Below, piece by piece: positions 1,373-26,203 of a stretch of DNA of 35,790 nucleotides (positions are counted from its first letter, which is position 1; each line of letters starts with the position of its first letter). Under the pieces are notes generated by a model, which had not been told where the DNA came from, searched no databases, and saw nothing but the letters and a program-made list of their open reading frames with translations. The stretch is from an uncultured Clostridia bacterium (GTDB lineage Bacteria; Bacillota; Clostridia; Christensenellales; CAG-917). The stretch spans positions 1 to 35,790 of the forward strand of contig CANREO010000003.1 of assembly GCA_947629635.1 (NCBI GenBank), given 5' to 3'. The translations under genes and the position numbers were made by a program.

Positions 1373-3517
1373 CTATGCGCCGCGCTTACGCCTCAAATAA
1401 GCGCCTCTGAAGAGTTTTATCGCCACAATCGCGCACGCAGCAAGCGCCACGGAAAAAGCAAGACCTACGCAAAGACCGATGAGCGACGTCCGTTTTTGCG
1501 CAAGCTTTTCGGGGTATGTATAGTTTATAAACGCGCTCATTTCGTATTCGGCGCCGACTTCGTTGACGCGCAAAATGTCATGTTTTGCCGTCAATGCCTT
1601 AAATCTTTCAAATGCTTGCTCTTTTTCGGCAAACGTTGTGGAATCGGCCATCATTAACGCATAGTCGACATTCACTTGAAACTCTTCCACAAAGAAGCGC
1701 GTCGCGTCATCTTGCGCCAACTCGTAAGCCTCTGACAGGAGCTGCGAATATTTGCGCAAATTCTTCTTGCTCAAATAGTCCCTCTCATGGTAGGTTATCT
1801 CGTCATAAATATCCATCTCCCACGCCTTTTCCGCCTCGTTGTGCATAATATCCAGGTACTCGGCGATCTTCGGCGCCGCTTCTTTATACGTCACCTTCAA
1901 ATACTTGCCTGTCAGCTTATTTACGTCGACGTCGATGTCCCAAAGTTGTCTTGCAAGTAGATAGCTGCGCAGCCTTGCCTGTTCGTCGTTTTTCTCGCGG
2001 CTTCCCTGATGGAAGACCATATCCACGCCGTTCTCCTTATAAAACTTAAGATTTTCCTGTTGCACGGCATAATTGGGGAAAGGACAAAGCAAATGGCGGA
2101 AATTGACCGTATAATCCCAAATTGCGATATGTTTGCTTATTTTTGACCAGCCCTCTACCATTTTTTTGGCTTGAGCAGAGTTCATAAACCCATATTTAGA
2201 CGAATGCAATTGCGAGGAGCTCAGCGGCGCTATGGTTATGCTGACGTTGTCTCTGAGCGTTATATTGCGAGGCACGACTTTGGTGTAAAAATACGCAAGC
2301 GTGCATATGCGCTTGTCGGGATGCCGACTTGCGATCTCGTTTATGATCTCAAGCATCACGCCGGCGTGTGAGCCGTATTTCAAAAATTTTGCCGTACATT
2401 GTGAGCATTCGCAATGCATTCTGCTGTCATTTATGGAAAAATCCCAATAGATAGCGTCGGGATATTGTTCCATAAGTTCGGACATGCCATTGTCAATGAT
2501 ATCCACGATGTCGGGATTCGACAGGCACAGCTGACCCGGAAGCCCGTTATATTCCGTACGTCGTTTGCCGGCGATCAACGAATAATATTCGGGGTGAGTA
2601 TCGAAATACTTTTCTGGCGGCACAAACGTATAGACGCTGTGGCACCAAGTCCCCCACTGCGCGTTGCCGTCGTTCAGTCCGCTGCCTTTATCCGTAAAGA
2701 TGTAATCGCCGGTCCCGTTGGATTTTATACGTCTACTCCAATTTAGCTTTGTTACGGGGACTTCTTTGCTTACGAAATCGTTAACTTCGTATTGATATAT
2801 TCTGCGCCAGGCAAAGTCCGGGTTGTCCACTCTGCCGCCGTCGGCCGGAAGGCATATCGTCCTCATTTTGGGGATGTAGTCGTACTTTGCCTCTTCACGC
2901 ACAAACATGCAACCGAGGTCGTTTTCCAAGAAGCAATATATGCCGTTTGCAGTGCCCGACGTGCCGTCGTTGGAAACCTCTTTTCCAAGTTCTTCATATA
3001 CAGTTGTACGTTTTTGTCCGCAAATGTATATATTTCCTCCGCCGTACATCAGCCTGTATCCGTCGTCCTTGACCTCTTCTAACAGTTTGTCCGCTTGTTC
3101 TCCGCTTGTGGGCACGTCGTTAAGCACGATCATCGGCGAACTCGACGCTTCGCTTATTATCTCAAATCCGTCTGCGTCGCCCACTTCATCTATACTTTTG
3201 CCGCTGACCATCTGTCTGAGCACACTCTGCATATAGATGGCGTCCGCCTCCAATGATTCGGCGTACTCGGGTCTCAACAGTATTTTAAAGTCGGAGACTC
3301 CGTCGCGAGCAAGATAGATCCCTCCTTCCTTGTCGGCGGCCATCTCCGAGACAAATTTCTCCTCGTCCCAATCGTCCAAATGCTCGCCGATCGCAATTTT
3401 ATACATATTTGTTTTTATGAGAGTATAACAGCAAGCAAGTACTATACCAAGCGCCGCGATAAACGCGACAAGCGCGATGAGAAATATTTTAAGCTGCTTT
3501 TTTGCTTTCTCAGACAT
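1373..3517 (-). CDS. DUF4838-like putative glycoside hydrolase with N- and C-terminal TM anchors
   Basis: HSVYTFVPPEKYFDTHPEYYSL...QLCLSNP, TLAY, IWDY...PFPN and YLLARQLWD are typical of DUF4838 proteins. Start moved to MSEK at 3517 because the upstream ATG (3550) overlaps a -10 box. Confidence 0.75.
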   Translation of the reverse strand: MSEKAKKQLKIFLIALVAFIAALGIVLACCYTLIKTNMYKIAIGEHLDDWDEEKFVSEMAADKEGGIYLARDGVSDFKILLRPEYAESLEADAIYMQSVLRQMVSGKSIDEVGDADGFEIISEASSSPMIVLNDVPTSGEQADKLLEEVKDDGYRLMYGGGNIYICGQKRTTVYEELGKEVSNDGTSGTANGIYCFLENDLGCMFVREEAKYDYIPKMRTICLPADGGRVDNPDFAWRRIYQYEVNDFVSKEVPVTKLNWSRRIKSNGTGDYIFTDKGSGLNDGNAQWGTWCHSVYTFVPPEKYFDTHPEYYSLIAGKRRTEYNGLPGQLCLSNPDIVDIIDNGMSELMEQYPDAIYWDFSINDSRMHCECSQCTAKFLKYGSHAGVMLEIINEIASRHPDKRICTLAYFYTKVVPRNITLRDNVSITIAPLSSSQLHSSKYGFMNSAQAKKMVEGWSKISKHIAIWDYTVNFRHLLCPFPNYAVQQENLKFYKENGVDMVFHQGSREKNDEQARLRSYLLARQLWDIDVDVNKLTGKYLKVTYKEAAPKIAEYLDIMHNEAEKAWEMDIYDEITYHERDYLSKKNLRKYSQLLSEAYELAQDDATRFFVEEFQVNVDYALMMADSTTFAEKEQAFERFKALTAKHDILRVNEVGAEYEMSAFINYTYPEKLAQKRTSLIGLCVGLAFSVALAACAIVAIKLFRGAYLRRKRGA

Positions 3518-4744: not shown

Positions 4745-5467
4745 TTAACTATTTTTGACGGGAGGCAATGTTCCGACATTGTCCGTGGCTGCCGCCAGGA
4801 TGTCGGGCATAATTTCTTCGTACTTTGTAAGCCCTTTTGAAACCGCTTGCACAAAACAATCTTTGGCGTTGCCGTCCGCGCTATCGGAAACCACCTTTAC
4901 GGAAAGTAACGGGATGGAGTTGCGCTCGCAAGCAATGGCAAGGCCCGCAAGTTCCATGTCGCAAATGTCGCAATCCATAGCTCTGAGGGCCTTCTTTTGC
5001 TCGTCAGATCCTATAAAAACATCGCCGCTTGCTACGCTCACTCTTTTCAAGGGACGTTTTGTTGCCGCCAGTACAAGAGTGATAAACCGCTCGTTCAAAT
5101 AAAAATATTCATCACTCTTACCGTCGTACTGTCCGCGCTTTGCTCCGTCGATGAGGGAAGTGTCAAATTGATAGTGGCACACTCTGGATGCAAGCACGAG
5201 TTCACCTACGCCGAGGGAGGGGCGCAACGCGCCCGCAAAACCGAAATTGACAACCGCTTCCACGTCAAAAAGGTCCTTCAGCAGTTGCACCGCCATTGCC
5301 GCTCTTATTTCTCCGACGCCGCCGGTGGCAAGATATACGAGATGCTCTCCAATGGCAAACTTGCACACGCGTACGCCGCTTATAAAGCTTTCCGCCTCCA
5401 AATTGCCAAGTTTTTCGTAAACGGGCATGGTTTCTTCCGCCATAGCCGTAATAATGCCGATCCTCAT
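4745..5467 (-). CDS. mtnN: 5'-methylthioadenosine/S-adenosylhomocysteine nucleosidase
   Basis: MRIGIITAMAEE, GGVG, VVNFGFAGAL, ASGDVFI, DMELAGLA and VVSDSAD motifs. AGGAGG RBS before the ATG at 5467. Confidence 0.88.
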   Translation of the reverse strand: MRIGIITAMAEETMPVYEKLGNLEAESFISGVRVCKFAIGEHLVYLATGGVGEIRAAMAVQLLKDLFDVEAVVNFGFAGALRPSLGVGELVLASRVCHYQFDTSLIDGAKRGQYDGKSDEYFYLNERFITLVLAATKRPLKRVSVASGDVFIGSDEQKKALRAMDCDICDMELAGLAIACERNSIPLLSVKVVSDSADGNAKDCFVQAVSKGLTKYEEIMPDILAAATDNVGTLPPVKNS

Positions 5468-13310: not shown

Positions 13311-14627
13311 ATGGGAAGAGAAAAGTGCAAGACGAAAAAAAATTTGATTTTGACTGCGGTGATTTTAGGTATTTTAGCTTGTTTGTCTGTAATAATAATC
13401 GTGCCTATTTATTATCTCACCTACCAAACTACAGATCCGTTTGAAAGTTTCGATCTTTCCGTCGTAGATATAGAAAAAACCAACGCTATCTATTCCGTTG
13501 TGGAAAAAAGCAATAAATACTTAGCTCATCCCGATCTTGTATATAAGGACGGAAAATATATAACGATGTATGTTTTGGGACACGGGAAAGGGCAAATAAT
13601 CACCAAAATATCCGGAAACGGCGTCAATTGGGGAGATAGAGTACAAGATACGCCGAAAACATGGGAAAAATCACAGGAAACTCCAACTTTGTATGAATTG
13701 AAATTTGTTGACGAAAACGGCGAATTTACGCAAAAAAGCGCGCTTATAATGATTTCGGGTTGTCCGAAATGGCCCGGAACAACGTATAAGGCAGACGGTT
13801 TTCAATTTTCGATTTCCGAGGACGGCGGAGCAAATTGGACGGAATTCGAAAAATGCTACGGCAGGGCTTGGGGAGACGCATATGATTGTATCGTGGCAAT
13901 GTCGTCCTTGACGCAGATCAAGGAAAACGGTCGATTTGTCAACAAATGGATGGGCACTTTTCATGACAGATCGTTTATAAATTACAAGACATATCTCACT
14001 TTTGAAGAAAGTTACGATGGCAAATTGATAGCGCATTGGACCAAGCCGGAAAAACTTTTCGACAATCATAGGGAAGATGAACTCAAATATAATATTTGCG
14101 AAGTCGAAATAATACGCACTCCTTCAGAAGACGGTAGCGCTCTCACCGGCAACACGCTTATTTTGCTTGCGCGCGCAAACAAACATGAGACGGGCTCGTT
14201 GATCCTTTTTTCTAACGACGAGGGAGAAACGTGGAGCAAGCCGCGCGAACTTCCGGCGGAGCTTACCGGCGACAGACACAAAGCGGAATATGATCCGATT
14301 TCAAAAAAACTGATCGTAAGTTTCAGACAAGTGTGGCACGGAATGTATAAAAACGCTTTCGGGCAAGGACCGAAAGCCGTGGGAGCAGGTTGGCTAGGTT
14401 GGGTAGGTACGTTTGAAGATCTGTTGAGCTACCGTACGGAAAGCCCTACGATCGGCGAAAAAGTATTGCTGCTCGGCAAAGATTACGGAGGAAAAATAGA
14501 TTGCGGCTACAGTGGCACGGCATGTGTGGACGGCAGATTTACGTTGGTTGCATATGGGCAGTTTGACAAAGACGCCAAAGTGCCATATATAAGGAGCGTG
14601 TCGTTTGCGCTTTCGGACGTTTTATAA
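13311..14627 (+). CDS. membrane-anchored BNR/Asp-box beta-propeller (sialidase-like) protein
   Basis: N-terminal TM; Asp boxes SEDGGANW and SNDEGETW, degenerate SGNGVNW; C-terminal DCGY. Confidence 0.75.
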   Translation: MGREKCKTKKNLILTAVILGILACLSVIIIVPIYYLTYQTTDPFESFDLSVVDIEKTNAIYSVVEKSNKYLAHPDLVYKDGKYITMYVLGHGKGQIITKISGNGVNWGDRVQDTPKTWEKSQETPTLYELKFVDENGEFTQKSALIMISGCPKWPGTTYKADGFQFSISEDGGANWTEFEKCYGRAWGDAYDCIVAMSSLTQIKENGRFVNKWMGTFHDRSFINYKTYLTFEESYDGKLIAHWTKPEKLFDNHREDELKYNICEVEIIRTPSEDGSALTGNTLILLARANKHETGSLILFSNDEGETWSKPRELPAELTGDRHKAEYDPISKKLIVSFRQVWHGMYKNAFGQGPKAVGAGWLGWVGTFEDLLSYRTESPTIGEKVLLLGKDYGGKIDCGYSGTACVDGRFTLVAYGQFDKDAKVPYIRSVSFALSDVL

Positions 14628-14833: not shown

Positions 14834-14887
14834 GAAAATTTAATTCAAAACTGCGCGGAATAACGCAATTTCAAAAGTTTTCGGTTG

Positions 14888-17800
14888 TCAATTGCCGTAT
14901 CCGTATAGCTTTTCCATATTGATGACGAGACCTTGCGAGTCCTTGAACTCGACGCTCAAAATGAAGTTGGGGATTTTTACGCCGGCAAGGGCAGTGCGAA
15001 CTTCCGCCGGAACGCCGTCGACGTTTGCCCAGGCGATGAGATCGTCCATCGTCATATCGGCGAGCAGTTTTTGCAATTGCACGCCCATAGTGTTCAGAGT
15101 CGCTTCGCGAATAAACGGATTGTCGAACATGGAATCGGGCGTGATATCAATGATTTGTTCCATTGTGGCGTTGGATACTGCCGTATTCAAGTCCTTCATG
15201 GTCCCACCGGCAAGCAAGCGCAATATTGCCGCGCTCTTTGCGCGCACGGTGTTTGTGACTTTGCGTATTTTGCTTGTATCGAGCTCAGTCTCGAAACCGC
15301 CGTTTTTCTCATAATATATTTCGTTGCGAGTTGCGATATAACCCTTTTTGAGGGAGAAACGCATTTGCCCATCGTGATTGGGGTTTGCATTGCTGTATTT
15401 GACGTATTCGCCGTTTATAAATACATATTCTCCGTTGGCATCCGCTATATATACATTTTCGGCGTAGTGTTTGGAGTAGACGAGTCCGTCGGTGCTAACA
15501 CCGTCTCCGAGCTGCTCCTTTACGACGATAAACGAGTTGTTTTCGGCTGTTTCTTTACGATACATTTGCAGATCCCAGAAGGAAATATACGTATCGTTAG
15601 AGGACAAATATGCCGTCTTCTTGCCCAATACGTCGACATAAAGATTTTGCCCGTCTTTATATTTGTAGCCCATAAATACGGTGTTTTCGTTGTTGGCTTT
15701 GCCCTCGGTCACACTGCTTGCGTCGCTTTTTACTTCGCGATAGTACAACTTGGCGTCGTTGCCTTCCTGTTGCGTTTTGGTCACGTTTGCGGCAAGATAG
15801 GCGCAAAGCGCCGGATTGAATACCATATTGTCGTTTTTAGCGTCGTAATAGTAAATATTGTTTTTAGCAAGATATTCGCCCGCCGCCGCTCTCGCTTTCA
15901 AATCATCGGTATTAAAGTCCAGACCGAAAGAGGGGATGCTTACCATATCGTTTGGTGTTGTGGGAACTTTTTTGTAGACGAAATAGAATTCCGATCTGTC
16001 GTTCGTAAGTTCGGATGATTCGGGATCCAACGCGACATAGCGCTCGTTTGTCTTTGTATACTTGCCGAGATTGTCATATAGATATATGACTTCTTTGCCG
16101 TTTTCTTTCGCGTCTCCTTCGGTCCATTCCACAAAATACAGAGAATCTTCGGACGGATCAGATTCCGAGGCAAAGGATTCTTCCACTTCGACGGCATAGG
16201 CGTCGTAAATGTCGATGATCTCGCTGAGCAACATATCGTCAATGATCTTGCCGAGCGACGGACCCATGCTGTCTATATTGACATACGCGAGCTTTCTCAA
16301 CACGGCATTCCCCGTTCCCGCGGATTTGATATAATACAGCGAGTTGTCGTCATGATGTTGATTGATATAGTCCTGGCTTGCGAGGCGGAATAGGCCGTCT
16401 TCTTCTGCGTAATAGAACAGACGTTGTTCGTTTCCGTCCTCGTCTACAAAATAGTAGTTGGTCGCGCTTTCGCCTTCTTGGCGGCTCTGAAGCCCCGTGG
16501 CTGCTGCGTAGATGTCTGCGTCTATATCCATGACGTCAAACACTTGCAGATTGCCGAACGCGGACGAAAAGTCGCCGAGCGAAGTTGCTGCAAAGCGTTG
16601 CAATATCTTCGAGGAAGCTTCGTCTTTGGGCGTGCGATCGTATCTCTCTTTGCCGACATGATCCGGATTTGCCGGGTTAAACAGGGTATAATAGCATTTT
16701 TCCCCTTCGGTATCGGTGGCGTTTGCAAGAACGATTTTGACATATTTGCCGTTTTCGTTTGGCGTATAGTCGTCGTAAACTATGTCTATCATGTCTCCGA
16801 TCGCAAGCGTGTCGGTGACGGTGGCAAGCTCATTTATCTTTGTCTTTCTTGCCTTAAGAGTTTTCATGAGTTTGGACGCGTTGTCGCCGATCTCAATGAC
16901 GTCGGAGATCTTGAGTTCGTCTATCTTTTCGTCGAACTCATCCAGTTTTACGTTCAACTTGGCAAGCGATTGCATAATTTGCGCGGAATCCGCGTCTATG
17001 CGCATGAGCTCGCTTATATAAAGCTCGTTCATGATAGTGCCGAGTTCGGGGATGGTGCAGCCGCGGCGCGCGATGGATTGCATCGCGATCGCAGTGTCGG
17101 CGGCTTGCGTCAAATTATATCTTTGCATCTCCGCCTGCGTTTCGTCTTCTTCGTTGTCTCGGGTGTAGTAGTAAACGCGGACGTATTCGCCGTCATCGGC
17201 TTGTTGATAATCGCCTTCGTCGAGTTTATTGTAGCGCTTTACGTAGTCGAAGTCCGCGGATCCCGGCTCCGGATTGTGTGAAGGCGCATAGGCGTTGTAT
17301 TTGACGTAAACGGGTATTCTGACGTACATGCCATCGGGCGCCGCGGTATATTCGTCGTAATTGACCTCGATTATTTCGCCGAGAGTGAGTTTGTCCGCGA
17401 CGGATGCCAATTCGCTTATCTTGCAACCTCGTTTTGCAAGCGATTTCATGATCAGCGAAGTGTCTTCGCCGTCGACGTCGAAGAGGTCTCCCACCTCCAG
17501 TTCGGAGATCCTGTCGCCGATATTTGACAGCGTGCAGTCCGCGATCGCGCTTAAAATTTTGGGAGATGATTCGTCTATAGATACGACGTCTTTGATCTTG
17601 ATGTTGTCAAGCAAACCGTCGGCGTTGCGAAGGTCGCTTATACTCATATAGTTGATGGTCTGCAAGACGGCTTGCGAGGTGCCGACATGCGTGCGGAAAT
17701 AGTATTTGCCGTCAGTCGGATCTGTAATCTCCGTGAGTTTGCTGCTTTTTGTGATCGTGCCTTCGAATCCGAATTTCGGACTTTCCGTCAGCGCTTCTTC

Positions 17801-19000
17801 TTGAGTATAATAGCCTACGCGGTCAATGTTTACAGTGCCCGACGTCCTGTCTATTGCGGCGACGTGCGAGGCGTCGGCATAGCTTTTGCCTTCGGGGTCA
17901 ACGATAGTTTCCAAAGAGATGAATCCTTTGTCTATTATGTCGTCGGCGTTTGCGCTTGCAAGACTGTTGGAATACGCGAGCACGCAGAGATCCGCCGCGT
18001 CGCGATTGTTGTCAATGTTTGCGTCATAGCGCCTGTATATCATGTGACGATAGTATGTTTCGGTCGGAGCTTCCTCTGTAGCGGCATAGCAGGAATTGTC
18101 GACGACGTATTTGTAAGAGGTGACGCCGTCCTTTTCTATGGATTTTTTGATGTAGCGCAACTCTCTTATGTCAAGCCCTGTTGAACCGTCCGCCAGAGTT
18201 TTTCCGCCTGCGATATAAGTCTCTGCCCCCGGCGTGATATCGAGCGAAGTAAGTTTGTCCGATGGAATTTCGACATATGCGTCGTCCGAATCCTGCTCCG
18301 CGGCAAGATACAGATCATTGACGCCAACCGGCACATACGTATCGGTGTCGCCGTTTAGGAAAGTGCTTATCCTCAGCGCGTCTATTACGCTGCCGAAACT
18401 GTTGAGAGGAATGTCCTGGAGGGCGGCGATCATGTCGCTGCCAGAGGCGAGATCGATGTTGAATTTGTCTTTTATGGCGCGCAACGTCAAACCGTCGCCG
18501 CTGAAAGACTTCATGATGTTGTCAATGGCGGAAGGGATGCCGCTGTCCAGATTTTCTTCGAGAACGGGAAGATTGTAAGAGGCAAAATCCAGCCCCGTAA
18601 GATTGCCTATGTCGTTTAATGTGAATGAATCAAGTACTATTGACAAATTGCCGATAATCTCGGTCAGAGGCGTGTTGTAAAGGTCTTCTTTTGTCGTAAA
18701 GTCAATGCCGCTCACGCCGTTGAAAAGGGCTATGCCGTAGTGTTCGTACAAAACTTTCAAAGAAAGCTCGTGAAAATTTTGATAATCGTTCCATACGCCT
18801 TTTATTGCTTCAAGCAATGTTTCGCCGTACAGTTTGCTGTCGGGACGTATTACCTCGGCGTCGGTGAGGGAGCTTTGCAGCTGCCCCACAGTCATAGAAG
18901 TGCCTATGGCAAGGACGGCGCCGCCAATCGCAAGCACAAGCAACACGATGCCCAATACAATGCCCAATACAAAAGTCAAAGTACACCGAAAAACCTTCAT
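14888..19000 (-). CDS. large (about 1370 aa) acidic membrane-anchored repeat protein of unknown function
   Basis: N-terminal hydrophobic helix; recurring about 34-36 aa helical repeat interrupted by Tyr-rich inserts; AAGGAG RBS before ATG at 19000. Confidence 0.85.
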   Translation of the reverse strand: MKVFRCTLTFVLGIVLGIVLLVLAIGGAVLAIGTSMTVGQLQSSLTDAEVIRPDSKLYGETLLEAIKGVWNDYQNFHELSLKVLYEHYGIALFNGVSGIDFTTKEDLYNTPLTEIIGNLSIVLDSFTLNDIGNLTGLDFASYNLPVLEENLDSGIPSAIDNIMKSFSGDGLTLRAIKDKFNIDLASGSDMIAALQDIPLNSFGSVIDALRISTFLNGDTDTYVPVGVNDLYLAAEQDSDDAYVEIPSDKLTSLDITPGAETYIAGGKTLADGSTGLDIRELRYIKKSIEKDGVTSYKYVVDNSCYAATEEAPTETYYRHMIYRRYDANIDNNRDAADLCVLAYSNSLASANADDIIDKGFISLETIVDPEGKSYADASHVAAIDRTSGTVNIDRVGYYTQEEALTESPKFGFEGTITKSSKLTEITDPTDGKYYFRTHVGTSQAVLQTINYMSISDLRNADGLLDNIKIKDVVSIDESSPKILSAIADCTLSNIGDRISELEVGDLFDVDGEDTSLIMKSLAKRGCKISELASVADKLTLGEIIEVNYDEYTAAPDGMYVRIPVYVKYNAYAPSHNPEPGSADFDYVKRYNKLDEGDYQQADDGEYVRVYYYTRDNEEDETQAEMQRYNLTQAADTAIAMQSIARRGCTIPELGTIMNELYISELMRIDADSAQIMQSLAKLNVKLDEFDEKIDELKISDVIEIGDNASKLMKTLKARKTKINELATVTDTLAIGDMIDIVYDDYTPNENGKYVKIVLANATDTEGEKCYYTLFNPANPDHVGKERYDRTPKDEASSKILQRFAATSLGDFSSAFGNLQVFDVMDIDADIYAAATGLQSRQEGESATNYYFVDEDGNEQRLFYYAEEDGLFRLASQDYINQHHDDNSLYYIKSAGTGNAVLRKLAYVNIDSMGPSLGKIIDDMLLSEIIDIYDAYAVEVEESFASESDPSEDSLYFVEWTEGDAKENGKEVIYLYDNLGKYTKTNERYVALDPESSELTNDRSEFYFVYKKVPTTPNDMVSIPSFGLDFNTDDLKARAAAGEYLAKNNIYYYDAKNDNMVFNPALCAYLAANVTKTQQEGNDAKLYYREVKSDASSVTEGKANNENTVFMGYKYKDGQNLYVDVLGKKTAYLSSNDTYISFWDLQMYRKETAENNSFIVVKEQLGDGVSTDGLVYSKHYAENVYIADANGEYVFINGEYVKYSNANPNHDGQMRFSLKKGYIATRNEIYYEKNGGFETELDTSKIRKVTNTVRAKSAAILRLLAGGTMKDLNTAVSNATMEQIIDITPDSMFDNPFIREATLNTMGVQLQKLLADMTMDDLIAWANVDGVPAEVRTALAGVKIPNFILSVEFKDSQGLVINMEKLYGYGN

Positions 19001-19042
19001 AATCACTCCTTATTTCGTATATGCGCGCCGAGGCGCGCACGA

Positions 19043-19810
19043 TCAGCCGAATATCTTTGATAAAACTTGCGCAAGGGGATTGTGCAAGTAGAGATAGCCG
19101 CATACGGGCGAATTTGTCAAATATTCGTCCACAGTCGGCAAAGTGTTGCGCAAGGATTTGAGTATGGCAAGCACAAGCAGCATCGTGATTATGGTCAGCG
19201 CCGCGCCGATTATGGCGCCGAAACTCCTGTCTACGATGCGCAATGTGACGCTCTCGGATTTGTGCATTCGCCTGAAGATCTTCCGGAACAGCCACATTAT
19301 TATGCCCAACGCGACGCAATATATGATAAACATGACGATCGCTACCACAATGGACACTATAAAGTCCGCCGCGACGCCGTTCAACGACTGTCCGTCCTCA
19401 TGGATGAAGCGCTTTGCCAGCCATAGCGCCAACTTGCCGCGCGTTTTGCTTACAAGGCCGCTGCCCGCCGCCTCGTCAAGCGGGATCTGCCTGACTTCGC
19501 CGTCTATTTCCACATTCATGAAGTAGGAGCCGTCCTCGGCAATGTGTATCGGCTCCGTAAAGACCTCGCCCCAGGATGAGGATTTTTCGGTGAGGGAGGC
19601 GGTCATATTTTGTATAAAAGAAAGACCTTTTATCCCGTTGATAGAGGCTCCGACCAAAAGCAAGGAAAGCAAAATAATTGTGATGGACATAAATAAGCCC
19701 TTTGCGGATCTTGCCGCGCCGCCTATGATACCCAAGATCAAGCCGACTGCCAAAACGGCAAAAAACGCAATGTCCGCATATGATATGACTGCAAGCGTCA
19801 ATTCAAACAT
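19043..19810 (-). CDS. CvpA-like membrane protein
   Basis: DIAFFAVLAVGLILGIIGG N-terminus; LRIVDRSFGAIIGAA and C-terminal NSPVCGYLY are CvpA-like; GGAGG RBS before ATG at 19810. Confidence 0.6.
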   Translation of the reverse strand: MFELTLAVISYADIAFFAVLAVGLILGIIGGAARSAKGLFMSITIILLSLLLVGASINGIKGLSFIQNMTASLTEKSSSWGEVFTEPIHIAEDGSYFMNVEIDGEVRQIPLDEAAGSGLVSKTRGKLALWLAKRFIHEDGQSLNGVAADFIVSIVVAIVMFIIYCVALGIIMWLFRKIFRRMHKSESVTLRIVDRSFGAIIGAALTIITMLLVLAILKSLRNTLPTVDEYLTNSPVCGYLYLHNPLAQVLSKIFG

Positions 19811-19861
19811 ATATCCTCCACGCAGCGAGCTCGCGCGCACTTATACTACAAATATATTTAG

Positions 19862-19890
19862 ATTATAACCAAATTAAAAGCCTTTTGCAA
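19862..19890 (-). promoter_or_regulatory. sigma-A promoter for the cvpA-like/repeat-protein operon
   Basis: TTGCAA-17bp-TATAAT. Confidence 0.7.
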
Positions 19891-19994: not shown

Positions 19995-20621
19995 ATGAAA
20001 AAATCACTGAAAAAAGATATCGAACAGATTCTGCTTGAGGACGCCGTAAGGCAACCCGTAGAGAGCGGAAAGCGAAAAAAGGACGAGCAAGCCGTCTCCG
20101 TCGTGCCTGCCGACGACAACAAGCTTGCGCCATTTGTCAGCCTGACGCTCAAACCGCTGATAGACAGCGCGCACAAACAGGTGGTAGTGGTCTGCTTCGG
20201 CACTACGTCTATATCGGGCGACGCGCTGGGGCCGATGGTCGGCACGATGCTCAAGGATAAATACAGATTGCCGACCTTTGTCTATGGCACCGAACAGCTG
20301 AACGTAAACGGCAAAAATATGAGCGAGTGGATGGCATTTATAAAAGAAGTACACTCGGACGCCGTCTTCGTCGCCGTAGACGCGAGCTTGGGTTCATCCG
20401 ACAAAGTGGGACAAATATTGGTGCGCGAGGATGGGGTATGCCCGGCGGCGATAAAAGGCAAAAGGACGCGCTTCGGAGACATCGGCATACTTGCCGTCGT
20501 CGCCGAAAATAAGGGCGACGCGCTTATGCAATTGATGTCCGTATCGCCCGTCGATGTGGAGAAAATGGCGGTGAAAATAGCGGCGATGATAGATATGAGT
20601 TGCGGCAGAAAAATCGCATAA
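19995..20621 (+). CDS. yyaC: spore protease YyaC (DUF1256, GPR-related)
   Basis: VCFGT...GDALGPMVG...VYGT, VAVDASLG...VGQI...P...GDIGI. Confidence 0.85.
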   Translation: MKKSLKKDIEQILLEDAVRQPVESGKRKKDEQAVSVVPADDNKLAPFVSLTLKPLIDSAHKQVVVVCFGTTSISGDALGPMVGTMLKDKYRLPTFVYGTEQLNVNGKNMSEWMAFIKEVHSDAVFVAVDASLGSSDKVGQILVREDGVCPAAIKGKRTRFGDIGILAVVAENKGDALMQLMSVSPVDVEKMAVKIAAMIDMSCGRKIA

Positions 20622-20964: not shown

Positions 20965-23772
20965 ATGACGCAAGAGCAAAAACAGGTTAAGAGGGCCAAG
21001 AGGTACCGCATCTTAAAAGTGTTGTTTTATTTTCTGGGCCTGCCACTGTTTATCTTCACGGTGTTTTTGACCAGCATTTCGATGCTAGGGCACGCACCGT
21101 ATGTCGGGACTAGCAAAATTACCTCGACCATAGGCACGCTGACTTATTTCGAGTCCTTGCTGACTTCGCCCGCGCTTTACGGTTTTTGGTTGGCGGTAGT
21201 GCTGTGGTTGACGGTGTCCATCATTCATATTATCCTCAGCAAGACGGTGAAAAACCGTAGGGTGAGGCTTTTTACCGTCTTGGTGTGCATTTTCGTCTTT
21301 ATGTTTGGCGGCACGCTGCTTATGGACACGGTGCTGGACGCGAAACTGACCAATCTGGCGGCAAGCGCGCCGGAAGGGGTCACCATCGACGACTATAAAA
21401 CGGAGTTGTCTTACTATAGGGCGCACAGCGCGCAATATCGTGACGACAGGACGCTTTCATTGATCGACGCCGTCAAAAATAAACTTAACGTATACAACGT
21501 CGGGCTGACCGGCGGCAATAGCGGCGGCACGGCGACCAACATGGAAAATAAGCCGATCACTTATTATAACATCATCAGCGACGATGGCGAAACGGGCGTC
21601 GATATTTCTTTCAGAAAGAACAATACTACGGGATTTTGGGAGCTCGATTACGATCCGACGGACGGACACAACGTCTTTTGCGGCACTGACGGCATCTCCA
21701 AGGACGTAGAAGGCGCACAGCTTATAAGGCTTAAGCCCAATAGCGCCGGAATGCTGGAAATAAACGGGAAAATTTATTCGCATTATTATTGGGTCAACAG
21801 AGGCTCCATGCAAGGACAGCCCGTATACATTTGGTATACCAAAGATATGGTGTCCGATTCGTTTACTTTCGATCCTGCGACGGGCGTGAGACAGATCCCC
21901 ACTACCGAAGGCCCGTACGGTCCCGGCGTATATACAAAAGCCGGCATGCTGAACGATGGCTGGATCTTCGGCCTTGACAACGTCATGCGTATCCTTGAAG
22001 ACTATTACGAGGCGCAGCAGGCGTTTGCCGAATGGGAAAAGCAGGACAGCAAAAGGCTTTCGGAAGTGCGTGCGGAAATGTTTTCATCTGCAGCCGAGAG
22101 GCGCGAAAGATATTATCATGGCGAACTTGTCGATCAGACGACGGGCGAAGCCGCCGACGAATGGTTGCAAGCTCTGTACGAGCAGGAATCGGACTATCAA
22201 AACAGATTTTCCCTTACACACGGCAGGTTGGACGCGCTCATTTCGCAAGTGGCGGCGTTGCTTGGCGACAACAGTTTGTTTGACTATCTTCTTAAAAACG
22301 CGGATGAGTTGGACATAACGTATCAGGGCTTCAATATCGGCGAGATCTTGGCTCCGATACTGAAAGATTTGGCAGGAGGCATGAGCCTCAGAAATCTGCT
22401 GACACAACTCTCGGGAATAATCAGCGGCATGGATGTGGATAAAATCTGCGGCACGGTTGCGGAAATATTCAACTATTTGATGGATCGCAGCGACATAAAA
22501 GACATATATATCGTGCTTGTCTATAAGGCGCAAGATCCATGGGGACACGACCGTAACAATCTGTATCTTGCAGTGGTCAAGGACAACGGCGCGGACGCAA
22601 TGGGCACGGAGGACGATATATTGTTTAAGCTGGATCTTATGGACGCGCTTGACGATCCGGAAGATCCGGCAAGCGAATATAAGTTCGATTTGGACAAGGT
22701 CAGCAAATTCCTTTCGACAGCGCTCAACAATCTTTTGACAAACTATAACGGCGGCTCCATAAAGGGCATTGTCAATACCGTATTGGATTTATTGTCCAAT
22801 CTCGGCATACTCGTCAAAGATGTCAACGTTGACGGCGTGACATACAAGGGCATCAACATACTTGGGTTTGACATTCCGCTTATAAAGGTCGAGCGGATCG
22901 ATGAAAACACCGTAAATTATATCATCGATATCGACATCGGCATGATTGCGCGCAATATACTTTCTTCGCTTTACGATTACACTTCCTCCATCTTTTTGCC
23001 CGTATGGGAGTTCTATGACGCGGCAAGATGGGGCGAGGACGCGAATGAATATGAAAGGGCTGTGCAGCAAATGCAATGCCAATACGAGCGCGCATACTTC
23101 GAGGGCGCCGTATATGGCAAGATGATAGCTTCTACCGTCATAGGCGACTCTCTCGGCACCGGCAATTACCCCTCTTCGTTCGGTTTTCAAAACTTGAATG
23201 AAGTGAGACAATTTATGATAGATTTGACCTATCTGCCCAAGCTGTATCCAATGCTTGCCTTCCGCGATATGATGCTTATGTGCGGCGGATTTGTAATTTT
23301 GTTCTATCTGTGCAGTTTCATTGCTGCGGAAAAGGAAGAACAATATGCGTCAGGACAACTTGTCGTCAAAAAGCGCAAGAAAAAAGACAAAAATAAAAAG
23401 AAGGAAGAATCTTTCGCAGACGAGATGAGAGAGGATATCGCCGCGCTCAAAATTCTGGACGATCAACCTACGCTATTCCCGATCGAGCCGGAGCAGACGG
23501 CGGATACAAAAGATGCGGAAGATATGGTCTTGCCCGATATAGACGCCGTTGCGACGGACGAGAAGAAGCCGGCGGAAGAAATAACGCCGGATGAGCCTAT
23601 GGCGACGGAAGACGGACTGCAAGCGAAAGATGCGCCCGGAGACGGGGCGGATATAGCTGCGGACGAAGTAAAAGCGGCGGAAGGGCATGCTCCCGAAGGC
23701 GCTCCCGAGCAAAACGCAAGCGAGGCGACCGCCTTGCCTGTGAATGAAAATACGGACAAGGAGGTGCACTGA
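20965..23772 (+). CDS. large membrane protein of unknown function (3 TM + large domain + 1 TM + acidic tail)
   Basis: 935-aa ORF; AAGGAG RBS; hydrophobic segments read from the translation. Confidence 0.85.
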   Translation: MTQEQKQVKRAKRYRILKVLFYFLGLPLFIFTVFLTSISMLGHAPYVGTSKITSTIGTLTYFESLLTSPALYGFWLAVVLWLTVSIIHIILSKTVKNRRVRLFTVLVCIFVFMFGGTLLMDTVLDAKLTNLAASAPEGVTIDDYKTELSYYRAHSAQYRDDRTLSLIDAVKNKLNVYNVGLTGGNSGGTATNMENKPITYYNIISDDGETGVDISFRKNNTTGFWELDYDPTDGHNVFCGTDGISKDVEGAQLIRLKPNSAGMLEINGKIYSHYYWVNRGSMQGQPVYIWYTKDMVSDSFTFDPATGVRQIPTTEGPYGPGVYTKAGMLNDGWIFGLDNVMRILEDYYEAQQAFAEWEKQDSKRLSEVRAEMFSSAAERRERYYHGELVDQTTGEAADEWLQALYEQESDYQNRFSLTHGRLDALISQVAALLGDNSLFDYLLKNADELDITYQGFNIGEILAPILKDLAGGMSLRNLLTQLSGIISGMDVDKICGTVAEIFNYLMDRSDIKDIYIVLVYKAQDPWGHDRNNLYLAVVKDNGADAMGTEDDILFKLDLMDALDDPEDPASEYKFDLDKVSKFLSTALNNLLTNYNGGSIKGIVNTVLDLLSNLGILVKDVNVDGVTYKGINILGFDIPLIKVERIDENTVNYIIDIDIGMIARNILSSLYDYTSSIFLPVWEFYDAARWGEDANEYERAVQQMQCQYERAYFEGAVYGKMIASTVIGDSLGTGNYPSSFGFQNLNEVRQFMIDLTYLPKLYPMLAFRDMMLMCGGFVILFYLCSFIAAEKEEQYASGQLVVKKRKKKDKNKKKEESFADEMREDIAALKILDDQPTLFPIEPEQTADTKDAEDMVLPDIDAVATDEKKPAEEITPDEPMATEDGLQAKDAPGDGADIAADEVKAAEGHAPEGAPEQNASEATALPVNENTDKEVH

Positions 23773-23773
23773 T

Positions 23774-26203
23774 ATGAGAAAAAACGCGCAAAAGCCCATT
23801 ATCAATCTCGATGCAAACGGCAACGCGATCCCCGAAGCGTTTCCCGTGAGTAAGGGCGCAAAGAAAGATCACAGAAAAACATCGGTGATATATACGTTGC
23901 TCGCATTTTTGTTGCATTTGCTTGCAGTATTGCCTCCCGTCGGTGTAACGCTGTTTTTGGCGCTGAAGACGTACGATCTCGTGCCGTATTATTCCTTCTG
24001 GCCTTTTGTGGCCGTGATCGTAGTAGGCGTCATGGCAATAATATTTACCGTTGTCACGCTTATAGTGACAAGACCCAAAACCAAGAGCAGTATCATGTCG
24101 CAGACTGCAAAGGTCGCGGCAACGTTTGTATGCGTCACATCGGGTCTTGGGATCATCGTCACATACGTGTCCCCCGACATCATCGCGACCGCAACGTCAT
24201 ATACGCTGTTTAACGAAGATCTGTATTACAACGGCGAAAATCAACTTCAGACAAACGCCAAATACGATCGCGAGTTTATCATGGCAAACCTCGTGACGGG
24301 CACCCTGAACGATAGCGAAGACCCGGACGGAGACTTCTCGTATAAAACTCTTTCCAAGCAGATTGAGCAGCCAAACGGCAACTTCTTAAGTTATGAAAAC
24401 GACGAGATACAGACCTATTACGACGGCTACATGCAAAACAGGACCAAAGAAGTTTTGCAAACGGAAGTATTGGACGTGCTTAAAGAAAAGAGCCCGAGAA
24501 AGTATGAGCTGTATGAGTTTATTTACAACAATTTTGTGTTGCTTGACTTCGACTATGCGCTGACAAACGGCTTGCAAAGGCGCGCCTTTACGCTGTCTAT
24601 GGTGGATTATATTTACAATCACTTCGACTACGAGGGCTTGCTTAAAGAAGGATTCCACAATCAGCGTTTGCTCGATCTGTTCCATAGAAATTACGATTCA
24701 TTCAACCAAGACGGCTATCAGACGTTTGACGATTCGCTGTTGCTTTATGCGCAGCTCGGTCCGCGTATGACGGTGCCCGTAGTGCTACGTCTTATTCTCA
24801 ACGGAGGATGGAAATACTCGCAGCCCTCTATGGACGACGAGGGAAATATGTATTACACCGAAGACGGACAAAACTTCCTGTATGAAATGTACAGCGCCTC
24901 TGCTTTGGAGGAGTTTAAGGCTGCTGGCGGCACATTCGATTATACGGGCAAGATGCGCAACAACAAAGGCGAGGAGATAGAGGTCAACTATGGCTTCAAC
25001 AAGGACGGTTGGATGGTGTTTGAAAACGGTATGATCAGACGCCCCATAGACTGGCTGGTGTTGGATATGTTGGGCACGCCTATGGATGTCACCCAACTCG
25101 ATCTTGCCGAACTGATCGGCAATCCGACCATAATGACGCTCGTTGAAAAAATACTCAACAGTTTGGGTTCGCTTACCGACGCCGTCGGCGACCTCATAAC
25201 CGAAGATTTGCAGAATGTTATAGAATACGCCACAAACGGATGTAACCTCAATATAGCGATATATATGAACGACAATGACCGCCTGGCGATCAGCATTGTG
25301 CCTATGAACTATCATTACGGCATACTCGGCTATCAGCAAGCGACATATATGCAGTCAAACAACTTGCTTATGGCGGTTATCAACGTTATGGGGGCACGCA
25401 ATTGGTTGTACATTTTCGGCTCGATAGGCACGATATTGGTTATCGCTGCCGGCATACTCCGCGAGTGTGGCAAGAGGACTCGCGAGCGTACGGAAGTGTC
25501 GCGCGACAGGATCATAAGAGCTAAGTCGCAACCTGTAGGCGACCTCTCTGCTTTGCCCGAAAAGTATGAGCAACGAATGGAAGCCAAGGAAGAAGAGCAA
25601 AACGCGTTCGCTATAGATGATGACGAGATAAAAGTTGTCGAAGAAAAGGCGCACGAGGGCGAGGAGAGCGAGAAGGCAGAGCCGATTTCGGAAGAAAAGA
25701 CGACCGAGCCTATAGAAACGGCGCACATTGAGAGCGTGTCGTCGGAAGCGTCCGAAGAAAAACCGGTGTCCGAACAAAAGGCCGAGTCTGTGCCCGAAGC
25801 GGAAGAAGTTGCGGAGCAAAAGACGGAAGAGCCTGAAGTGGCCGAGGAAAAGAAGAAAGAAAAGAAAGCAAAAGAGCCTAAAGCTCCAAAGGAGCCTAAA
25901 GAACCGAAGAAAGCCAAGGAGCCTGAAAAAAAGGAGAAGGAAGAGAAAAAGCCCTCCGCCCGTCCGACGTCTGCCGGGACTCAACGCCCGACAAACGGCG
26001 CTGCCAGACCTACAAACGGCTCGGCTCGGCCCGTACAACGCCCGGCGAACGGAGCAGCGAGACCTACAAACGGCCAACGCCCCACGACAAACGGCCAACG
26101 TCCGGCTAACGGCTCCAGACCTGCGAGCGCAAGACCTGCCGGCCAGCGTCCCACAAACGGCGCCCCCAGGCCGAGGCCCACAAACGGCTCGCGACCCAGA
26201 TGA
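23774..26203 (+). CDS. large membrane protein of unknown function (3 TM + large domain + 1 TM + E/K-rich and RPTNG-repeat tail)
   Basis: GGAGGT RBS at 23760-23765; ATG 1 nt after the upstream stop. Confidence 0.85.
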   Translation: MRKNAQKPIINLDANGNAIPEAFPVSKGAKKDHRKTSVIYTLLAFLLHLLAVLPPVGVTLFLALKTYDLVPYYSFWPFVAVIVVGVMAIIFTVVTLIVTRPKTKSSIMSQTAKVAATFVCVTSGLGIIVTYVSPDIIATATSYTLFNEDLYYNGENQLQTNAKYDREFIMANLVTGTLNDSEDPDGDFSYKTLSKQIEQPNGNFLSYENDEIQTYYDGYMQNRTKEVLQTEVLDVLKEKSPRKYELYEFIYNNFVLLDFDYALTNGLQRRAFTLSMVDYIYNHFDYEGLLKEGFHNQRLLDLFHRNYDSFNQDGYQTFDDSLLLYAQLGPRMTVPVVLRLILNGGWKYSQPSMDDEGNMYYTEDGQNFLYEMYSASALEEFKAAGGTFDYTGKMRNNKGEEIEVNYGFNKDGWMVFENGMIRRPIDWLVLDMLGTPMDVTQLDLAELIGNPTIMTLVEKILNSLGSLTDAVGDLITEDLQNVIEYATNGCNLNIAIYMNDNDRLAISIVPMNYHYGILGYQQATYMQSNNLLMAVINVMGARNWLYIFGSIGTILVIAAGILRECGKRTRERTEVSRDRIIRAKSQPVGDLSALPEKYEQRMEAKEEEQNAFAIDDDEIKVVEEKAHEGEESEKAEPISEEKTTEPIETAHIESVSSEASEEKPVSEQKAESVPEAEEVAEQKTEEPEVAEEKKKEKKAKEPKAPKEPKEPKKAKEPEKKEKEEKKPSARPTSAGTQRPTNGAARPTNGSARPVQRPANGAARPTNGQRPTTNGQRPANGSRPASARPAGQRPTNGAPRPRPTNGSRPR
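25961..26200 (+). repeat. coding imperfect tandem repeat RP(T/A)NG
   Basis: About 8 RPxNG-type units plus partial RP units; recurring ACAAACGGC at DNA level. Confidence 0.85.

Follow-up and report, generated by a model that had tools for sequence, protein, structure and literature searches.

The window (the whole 35,790-nucleotide stretch of DNA that was analysed, from an uncultured Clostridia bacterium) contains a cvpA-like gene followed by a gene for a 1370-residue repeat protein, both transcribed on the minus strand and separated by a 42-nt gap (19042..19001). The best explanation of the pair is that it encodes a lineage-specific cell-envelope structure. We propose that the large protein is anchored in the membrane and spans the wall as a surface stalk, with the CvpA-like protein as its base and binding modules on display, a reading that we place somewhat short of probable and that draws on the gene structure, the repeats, the phase of the inserts among them, conservation, synteny and confident fold predictions.

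The gene pair and its expression signals

The cvpA-like gene (19043..19810, minus strand) reads as 255 codons plus stop, from an ATG at 19810 behind a GGAGG to a stop codon at 19043-19045. The large gene (14888..19000, minus strand) lies in a listed frame that is open over 14888..19006; its start is the ATG at 19000 in the database form and in all relatives, giving 1370 codons plus stop, and the database form (P0001) is 100% identical to the window protein over 1370 aa. An AAGGAG ribosome-binding site (19007..19012, minus strand) can be read 6 nt 5' of this ATG. A sigma-A-type promoter-like site, TTGCAA-17-TATAAT (19862..19890, minus strand), lies 5' of the cvpA-like gene with 10/12 consensus matches, and a terminator-like hairpin (14844..14875, minus strand; consensus scan only) is located directly 3' of the large gene. 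Vegetative-type, sigma-A-like sites with at least 9/12 matches are present no more than 130 nt 5' of cvpA in 16/16 relatives' loci examined, and in 13 of those 16 the promoter-like sequence is TTGCAT-17-TATAAT. The promoter and terminator calls are consensus matches only, with 14 promoter-like sites found against 7.8 +/- 2.8 expected.

The gap between the two genes holds a GC-rich 8-bp hairpin (19021..19040, minus strand; RNAfold -16.3 kcal/mol, z -2.7), which is found at the same place in the window and each of 16 loci (L002-L018 and L030), and is absent from loci L019, L020, L022, L035 and L042. Its RNAalifold consensus contains seven pairs, six of them with compensatory changes, and many relatives have a T-run behind it and a terminator-like form of it. 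Judging from this conserved element, expression of the two genes may be partly uncoupled. The first-pass annotation had described a two-gene operon with a 42-bp gap and one promoter; the gap and the promoter-like site 5' of cvpA both stand, and the conserved hairpin within the gap adds a nuance.

Divergent from the cvpA-like gene in the window is yyaC (19995..20621, plus strand; DUF1256, spore protease YyaC-like), whose product matches Pfam DUF1256 at E 9e-28 and scores 80.3 bits with TIGR02841, slightly below the cut-off of 84.9. A yyaC gene adjoins the cvpA-like gene in 19/20 loci, and the adjacency also occurs in other families of the order. The neighbours p935 and p819 do not resemble the large protein (BLASTP E at least 0.043).

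Repeats and inserts of the large protein

The large protein contains 220 acidic and 124 basic residues (net charge about -96), 6.4% Tyr and one transmembrane (TM)-like stretch, in agreement with its initial description as a large acidic protein with one N-terminal TM segment. The N-terminus and TM helix (residues 1-40; 18881..19000, minus strand, as are all segments below) include a short basic start (K2, R5) and a single AF2 helix at residues 2-35, and are the best conserved segment, with 65-70% identity to relatives versus about 36% overall. Basic residues precede the TM and the remainder is acidic, and distant relatives carry long Lys-rich tails ahead of it; by the positive-inside rule, an extracytoplasmic location is supported for the predicted ectodomain.

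The TM helix is followed by an N-terminal helical domain (residues 41-222; 18335..18880) of degenerate units, modelled as short helices at pLDDT 80-94, whose sub-profile matches 103/148 representative proteins. Insert 1 (residues 223-440; 17681..18334) is a beta-rich autonomous domain containing KYVVDNSCY and modelled as strands at pLDDT 93-98. Repeats R1-R3 (residues 441-546; 17363..17680) and R4-R6 (residues 635-740; 16781..17098), each identified by HMM, profile-profile comparison and AF2, are separated by insert 2 (residues 547-634; 17099..17362), which consists of beta hairpins with 15.9% Tyr. Insert 3 (residues 741-793; 16622..16780), recognised by AF2, composition and its homology to insert 2, precedes repeat R7 (residues 794-826; 16523..16621; HMM and profile-profile), and insert 4 (residues 827-895; 16316..16522), the least conserved part at 18-22% identity, precedes repeat R8 (residues 896-931; 16208..16315), which has 78-90% probability to R6, R7 and R9 and is not significant alone in the shuffle test. 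Insert 5 (residues 932-1252; 15245..16207) is a large mixed beta/alpha region, after which repeat R9 (residues 1253-1286) and a helical cap at the C-terminus, which includes one or two degenerate units, complete the protein (14891..15244).

Nine copies of the repeat, a unit of about 34 aa, are firm in the window protein and correspond to nine matches of the repeat HMM. In a leave-one-out HMM test six of the nine scored better than all 500 shuffles (r443, r898 and r1257 did not), and profile-profile comparison of family sub-alignments joins all nine, mostly at 90-99% hhalign probability, with five control insert segments at about 0. Two to five degenerate copies flank the nine, among them an N-terminal unit (189) with 88% hhalign probability to repeat 481, a C-terminal unit with 71% and three weaker ones, for a total of 11-14 copies at most. 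An earlier estimate of roughly 10-12 copies of a 34-36-aa unit agrees with these numbers, and every example peptide quoted for it was found. AF2 models each unit as three short helices, of 8, 8-10 and 4 residues, bearing out the helical-repeat core proposed for the protein, and the repeat consensus has regularly spaced Leu/Ile/Val. Among the 4479 six-frame ORFs of the genome the repeat HMM matches only the large protein.

The five inserts (218, 88, 53, 69 and 321 aa) each start where a unit ends with its closing I/V, contain 10.1% Tyr versus 2.1% in the helical parts, and are modelled by AF2 as strands. The earlier observation that Tyr-rich inserts always begin just after a closing IxI thus holds for all five, at one repeat phase. 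In close representatives 126/156 inserts come after a repeat matched to the last HMM position, a biased count, since the HMM would miss any repeat that an insert divides. Insert 2 is homologous to insert 3 (hhalign 98.4%, E 5e-15, 75 columns), and in P0242 the insert 1 domain also occurs, on the C-terminal side of Peptidase_M13 (sub-profile E 1.3e-37). With identities to relatives of 18-41% versus 35-60% for the repeats, the inserts diverge faster, and they occupy the same sites in relatives. An extracellular rod displaying variable modules had been suggested; beta modules at a constant phase fit this, but their sites are shared among relatives and the modules are not freely variable. In their Tyr-rich beta hairpins on a probably extracellular protein, the inserts resemble the choline-binding repeat (PF19127) and kindred aromatic-rich beta-hairpin wall- or glycan-binding repeats. 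Membership in PF19127 was rejected, the one matching stretch (residues 1041-1064) scoring 14.2 bits against a cut-off of 27.

Two AF2 models of the large protein, of 520 and 941 residues, have pLDDT 85.4 (pTM 0.61) and 89.6 (pTM 0.77), and at a pTM of 0.61 the domain arrangement is uncertain. From the predicted secondary structure, the geometry may be that of a rod or solenoid. The likeness to ARM/HEAT-like alpha-solenoid proteins is one of tandem units of about 34 aa with three short helices each; whole-model fold searches gave no match to solenoids of this type. Foldseek searches of the PDB with both whole models gave best E values of 0.15 (C part) and 0.058 (N part) with TM-scores of at most 0.08, and a search of BFVD, with whole models only, gave a best E of 0.077 and no fold match. 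Profile A1 and P0202, searched against PDB sequences, yielded nothing relevant, the large protein matches no Pfam or NCBIfam family, Pfam revealed neither a wall-anchoring nor a known glycan-binding domain in it, and the ESM Atlas returned 'hypothetical protein' clusters only (0.83 and 0.76). The initial failure to recognise a named family is thus upheld across Pfam, NCBIfam, PDB sequences and whole-model PDB and BFVD fold searches, and a limited literature search found no paper on the family. Among other relatives, P0200 scores 35.9 bits with Pfam DUF6447, yet no stretch passes by itself, and the model does not match the window protein. The SpoVAA N-terminal domain (PF12164) was also rejected, with relatives at 13.7-23.8 bits against a cut-off of 25 and the window protein without a match at E <= 0.1.

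Distribution and the CvpA-like partner

The large protein is present in 106/108 genomes, covering 16/16 genera, of one family in the source organism's order of Clostridia, and a profile search recovers 525 clusters (50% identity) at E <= 1e-3. The superfamily is defined by an N-terminal TM, an N-domain profile match and at least two repeat-HMM matches, all of which the window protein has, with nine of the last. No explanatory Pfam domain was found in 78/78 members scanned, the sole real-stretch pass of a Pfam gathering score being the M13 peptidase on P0242. In a rod-like manner, the length of relatives varies between 362 and about 1900 aa as repeats, and blocks of three repeats plus an insert, are gained or lost. 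The large gene is the fastest-evolving of its block, at 36% identity versus 43-50% for the cvpA-like gene, 53-68% for YyaC and about 79% for DnaN; such a pace is common among exposed proteins. Uncultured Bacilli have unannotated repeat-array proteins (among them P0202, titled 'MAG: hypothetical protein [Bacilli bacterium]') with the same repeat in 4-15 copies, an N-terminal TM anchor and a similar post-TM motif; unlike the window protein, their arrays are mostly uninterrupted, and 19 representatives share a C-terminal W-K-Y-L-L-type motif. No relative turned up when metagenomes were scanned with P0218 and P0202. The source organism is from the gut, as four rabbit-gut runs of one study contain 66-81% of the sampled words.

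The cvpA-like gene lies directly upstream of the large gene in 20/20 loci and 12/12 further ones, i.e. 32/32 close loci, and also in 2/2 genomes of a second family (f95). In distant genera it is upstream in 2/5 and the pairing is lacking in 3/5, with the genes on different contigs in G401, 28 kb apart in G404, and cvpA not found in G471. The conserved pairing anticipated at the outset therefore applies to close loci and the second family but not to these three genera. In four genomes, from three other families, loop-bearing cvpA-like genes occur without a repeat protein, which shows that the CvpA-like protein can do without the large protein as a partner.

The CvpA-like protein passes the gathering score of Pfam Colicin_V (PF02674; E 4e-8, 33.8 bits versus 29.3), its f95 ortholog scores 30.8 bits, and 39/41 homologs found (150-298 aa) carry PF02674 in a precomputed column. 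It has four TM segments, with hydropathy windows at 11, 44, 151/170 and 205, and basic loops after TM1 and TM3 (alignment A5), obeying the positive-inside rule; between TM2 and TM3 is an extracytoplasmic loop of about 85 aa, which is conserved in the same alignment together with the C-terminal tail. Although it shares the family model match and the four-TM layout with CvpA / Colicin_V, it is 255 aa long versus a 144-position profile, a larger size than usual that is due to the inserted loop of about 85 aa, the Pfam match spans only residues 137-250 (ORF numbering), and the conserved tail is a further difference. It is also paired with a giant repeat protein, whereas the partner of E. coli cvpA is purF. 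In the MarP family (NF033740) a CvpA-like TM domain is fused to a periplasmic serine protease, and the likeness is in coupling a CvpA-type TM module to an extracytoplasmic part; the CvpA-like protein of the window has no protease domain, and its extracytoplasmic partner is a separate polypeptide. MarP membership was rejected at 19.3 bits against a cut-off of 250, the match covering the TM part only (residues 158-250, E 4.7e-4). According to Warr et al. (bioRxiv 10.1101/2020.09.25.314492), CvpA function is 'largely unknown', the family was once tied to colicin V export, CvpA is required for deoxycholate resistance with a proposed role in triggering sigma-E, and its phenotypes (colicin V production, bile resistance) are known only for enterobacteria.

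Proposed function and alternatives

We suggest that the large protein enters the membrane by its one TM helix, with the N-terminus inside and the remainder outside the cell. About 15 short three-helix units (some four degenerate ones, the nine clear 34-aa repeats and the cap) would form an elongated alpha-repeat core acting as a stalk through the Gram-positive wall, and the five Tyr-rich beta modules, leaving this core from the same inter-repeat loop, may bind polymers, namely glycans of the wall, the capsule or the gut habitat. The conserved TM helix and N-terminal domain would dock on the presumably co-expressed CvpA-family four-TM protein, whose loop of about 85 aa and C-terminal tail are also predicted to face outward, so that the CvpA-like protein could be the membrane base or assembly partner of the large protein. 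Complex prediction for A5 (the CvpA-like protein) with A4 (large-protein residues 1-230) gave ipSAE 0.00 in two runs with the controls not folded, and speaks neither for nor against contact.

The tight pairing and conserved TM helix would also suit an envelope sensor, whose ectodomain might read the state of the wall or surface, bile or other gut stresses, with the CvpA-like protein relaying the signal by analogy with E. coli CvpA, for which genetics points to activation of the sigma-E envelope stress response. The organism's gut origin and the link of E. coli CvpA to deoxycholate resistance and proposed sigma-E triggering (Warr et al., bioRxiv 10.1101/2020.09.25.314492) agree with such a role, but E. 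coli sigma-E lacks a demonstrated counterpart here, the transcription unit was found to hold neither a signalling domain nor a regulator or anti-sigma gene, the cytoplasmic parts of the CvpA-like protein are short loops only, and the length range of 362-1900 aa fits a structural spacer better than a receptor; we regard the sensor as unlikely. An involvement in sporulation, in which the pair would work with the neighbouring yyaC in spore formation or germination, e.g. at the forespore or spore membrane or in the cortex space, seems improbable as well. The adjacency of yyaC described above is in its favour, as are the retention of spo0A, spoIVA and spoVAC/EB in the genome, recurrent sub-threshold matches to Pfam SporV_AA in the repeat regions of four relatives, and the listing of yyaC among sporulation genes common to spore formers in Galperin et al. 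2012 (PMC3533761). However, the conserved promoter is sigma-A-like with no recognisable sporulation type (consensus reading only), the SporV_AA matches all fall below the cut-off with none in the window protein, and the repeat-array relatives occur in uncultured Bacilli, which need not be spore formers. Moreover, yyaC is divergent in the window and two loci, and in Bacillus subtilis too it maps close to the origin; its place beside the cvpA-like gene may thus reflect an old positional synteny.

As an alternative, the first-pass annotation had offered a hydrophobic-groove transfer protein acting with the CvpA-like protein, which we read as one for lipid or polymer. In its favour are the spaced Leu/Ile/Val of the consensus and a partner that is integral to the membrane and whose family has in the past been connected with colicin V export (Warr et al.). 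The same hydrophobic positions are what a packed core of short helices needs, and no known lipid-transfer fold was matched in whole-model searches, which are weak. Omp85 was not found in the organism's own genome (85% complete) or in 5/5 relatives (97-100% complete), and with none in 6/6 genomes there is probably no second (outer) membrane to supply, which leaves transfer very improbable.

The membrane-anchored stalk has a wider form, which we consider rather doubtful: the pair may be a first sighting of a widespread Firmicute envelope apparatus, in which a CvpA-family four-TM protein is the socket for a TM-anchored extracellular solenoid, a wall-spanning spacer and display stalk whose length is tuned by 34-aa units and by blocks of three repeats plus a beta module. 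If true, this would be the first structural role for the CvpA family, that of a platform on which extracytoplasmic partners dock, and the MarP fusion hints at it. The pairing with a specialised CvpA-family gene offers a concrete candidate partner for a membrane protein family of open function. The large protein itself is a member of a sizeable unnamed superfamily with a 34-residue helical repeat undescribed before, and this repeat, with its fixed-phase inserts and duplicating block of three repeats plus insert, lends itself well to a new family entry and to structural study. As a universal, fast-evolving and probably surface-exposed core protein of a small-genome family of gut Clostridia, it is a natural candidate for a part in surface architecture, adhesion and phage or host recognition in these barely cultured organisms.

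The gene pair near the replication origin

The window is the chromosome origin region of a Clostridia, with gyrB, recF, dnaA, dnaN, parAB and gidB, and with spo0A farther along. The source assembly (1.09 Mb, 85% complete) is small compared with those of relatives (1.3-1.9 Mb); genomes in other families of the order are just 0.8-1.1 Mb. A cvpA-like gene coding for 255 aa (19810..19043, minus strand) lies 42 nt upstream of a large gene (19000..14888, minus strand) coding for 1370 aa from the ATG at 19000, the form used for residue numbering unless noted. Both genes have good ribosome-binding sites, and a terminator-like hairpin lies directly 3' of the large gene. Upstream of the cvpA-like gene is a consensus match (TTGCAA-17-TATAAT), and consensus matching finds a sigma-A-like promoter in this position in 16/16 loci, which leans towards vegetative expression of the pair. 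In several relatives (L004, L012 and L016, in each around 5113-5135) the leader between promoter and ribosome-binding site carries a GCGCATA(C/T)GCGC-like palindrome; the window has a loose version only (about 19811-19860, minus strand), and with up to two mismatches the motif occurs 194 times across the 1.09-Mb genome.

The intergenic gap (19001-19042, minus strand) contains a GC-rich hairpin of 8-10 bp immediately after the cvpA-like stop codon, also present in the same gap of loci L002-L018 and L030. Its stem sequences vary among lineages, and six of the seven consensus pairs have compensatory changes. Because a T-run follows it in many relatives, this hairpin may fix the relative amounts of the two products, either by terminating partially or as a stabiliser.

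The cvpA-like product is a divergent member of the known CvpA family; its Pfam Colicin_V score of 33.8 bits exceeds the cut-off of 29.3. Of its four transmembrane (TM) segments, TM2 is separated from TM3 by an acidic loop of ~85 aa, and its C-terminal tail is conserved; loop and tail are predicted by the positive-inside rule to face outward.

On its plus strand the window also encodes two large acidic proteins of 935 aa (20965-23772) and 819 aa (23744-26203). They belong to no recognised family, have no Pfam or NCBIfam match, do not resemble the repeat protein and were not found in relatives' loci by tblastn; each begins with three TM-like segments, continues with a long central part and has one more TM-like segment late in the chain. 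A 438-aa protein (13311-14627, plus strand) with an N-terminal TM-like segment has BNR/sialidase-like matches, all sub-threshold (BNR_2, E 0.0018), and its gene lies in the segment, variable in length among relatives, that separates the repeat gene from arsP.

Repeats and inserts of the large protein

The first-pass annotation described the 1370-aa protein as a helical-repeat scaffold of no named family with inserts at a fixed position, and all three points are borne out. Scans of Pfam and NCBIfam assign it to no family. In a leave-one-out HMM test, six of nine proposed repeat copies outscore all 500 shuffles and three fail to do so. When per-unit sub-alignments from the 24-sequence family alignment are compared profile to profile, all nine units are mutually linked, mostly at 90-99% probability, and five control segments derived from the inserts score about 0; the repeats are real. 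One N-terminal and one C-terminal flanking unit reach 88% and 71% probability respectively, and for three further flanking candidates the match is weak. The family-wide repeat HMM recovers nine copies in the protein and no other match among 4479 six-frame ORFs of the same genome (next E 0.16). Sub-threshold Pfam SporV_AA matches (13.7-23.8 bits, cut-off 25) recur in the repeat regions of P0217, L035, L040 and L043, always to the same part of the profile (positions about 16-66); these may be coincidental or reflect a remote relationship with the SpoVAA N-terminal domain.

Two AlphaFold2 models built with family alignments cover residues 1-520 (pLDDT 89.6, pTM 0.77) and 430-1370 (pLDDT 85.4, pTM 0.61), and from these we infer the overall shape. 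Residues 2-35 form a single long helix. Each repeat unit is modelled as a helix of 8 residues, a helix of 8-10 and a one-turn helix, connected via single beta-bridges; residues 41-222 (the N-domain) and the last 84 residues share this texture, and the five inserts are strand-rich. Whole-model searches gave no fold match in any library.

The inserts contain 10.1% tyrosine, against 2.1% in the helical parts, and each of the five directly adjoins the end of the preceding unit. Counting inserts of 30 aa or longer in representative relatives, 126 of 156 in close kin come after a repeat whose HMM match runs to the final position; for the more distant proteins the count is 101 of 162. These counts are biased because an insert within a unit would probably go undetected. 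Insert 2 is homologous to insert 3 (98.4% probability, E 5e-15), and the protein therefore carries in duplicate a block made of three repeats and a beta module; precisely such a block is missing in some relatives. Insert 1 is an autonomous domain: its sub-profile matches the C-terminus of P0242 (E 1.3e-37), the rest of which is the two Peptidase_M13 domains of a neprilysin-type peptidase, although pairwise BLASTP aligns P0242 only weakly with the window protein (E 0.068). With its occurrence on an M13 peptidase, the domain is thus mobile between extracytoplasmic proteins.

Distribution and pairing with the cvpA-like gene

A word-based search yielded 275 relatives, none with a name beyond 'hypothetical'. 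Genome searches place the large protein in 106/108 genomes of the window's family (16/16 genera; 72/73 high-quality genomes), and a class-wide sample in only 3/401, all from that family. Identity to relatives is about 36% overall, from 65-70% in the TM segment and 47-49% in the N-domain to 35-60% in the repeats and 18-41% in the inserts; neighbours in the same loci have 43-50% (CvpA-like), 53-68% (YyaC) and about 79% (DnaN). At least one further family, f95 of the same order, has shorter relatives (362 and 558 aa) that carry the TM segment, the N-domain and 2-6 repeats and lack large inserts. When 1.84 billion representatives were searched with a profile, 525 proteins matched at E <= 1e-3, many through the repeats alone. 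Example members are TM-anchored, 600-1900 aa long and have as many as 15 repeats, mostly without interruption; one cluster is labelled 'MAG: hypothetical protein [Bacilli bacterium]', and none of 78 proteins scanned has a Colicin_V or wall-binding domain.

Pairing of the two genes is conserved at close loci and in f95 but is not universal. The cvpA-like gene lies directly upstream in all 20 loci with upstream DNA, in 12/12 further loci (some probably from the same genomes) and in both f95 genomes, where minimal pairs (L035 of G552, 1561-3423; L040 of G518, 48-2504) join it to the 362-aa or 558-aa protein gene within 4 nt. Among five distant genera the pairing is kept in G462 and G468 and absent in G401 (other contig) and G404 (28 kb away); in G471 the query used found no cvpA-like gene. 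Loop-bearing cvpA-like genes lacking a repeat-protein neighbour occur in four genomes of three other families.

Possible roles of the pair

The DUF1256 gene yyaC adjoins the cvpA-like gene at most sites, including one in a genome lacking the repeat protein. A sporulation-linked role for the pair is suggested by this neighbour (PMC3533761) and by the genome's retention of the spore genes spo0A, spoIVA and spoVAC/EB (contigs C66, C129 and C58); SASP was not found in the 85% complete assembly. By analogy with E. coli CvpA genetics (bioRxiv 10.1101/2020.09.25.314492), the pair might instead be an envelope sensor. Lipid transfer, in line with the hydrophobic-groove transfer protein raised in the first-pass annotation, is unlikely, since none of the six genomes searched yielded an Omp85.

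The libraries and limited literature searched hold no description of this repeat with fixed-phase inserts and a CvpA-family partner. Gram-positive surfaces are known to carry membrane-anchored repeat proteins in general; the repeat superfamily that includes the large protein is unannotated. Tentatively, the evidence best fits a membrane-anchored extracellular stalk bearing binding modules, for which the CvpA-like protein would be the base or an assembly partner.
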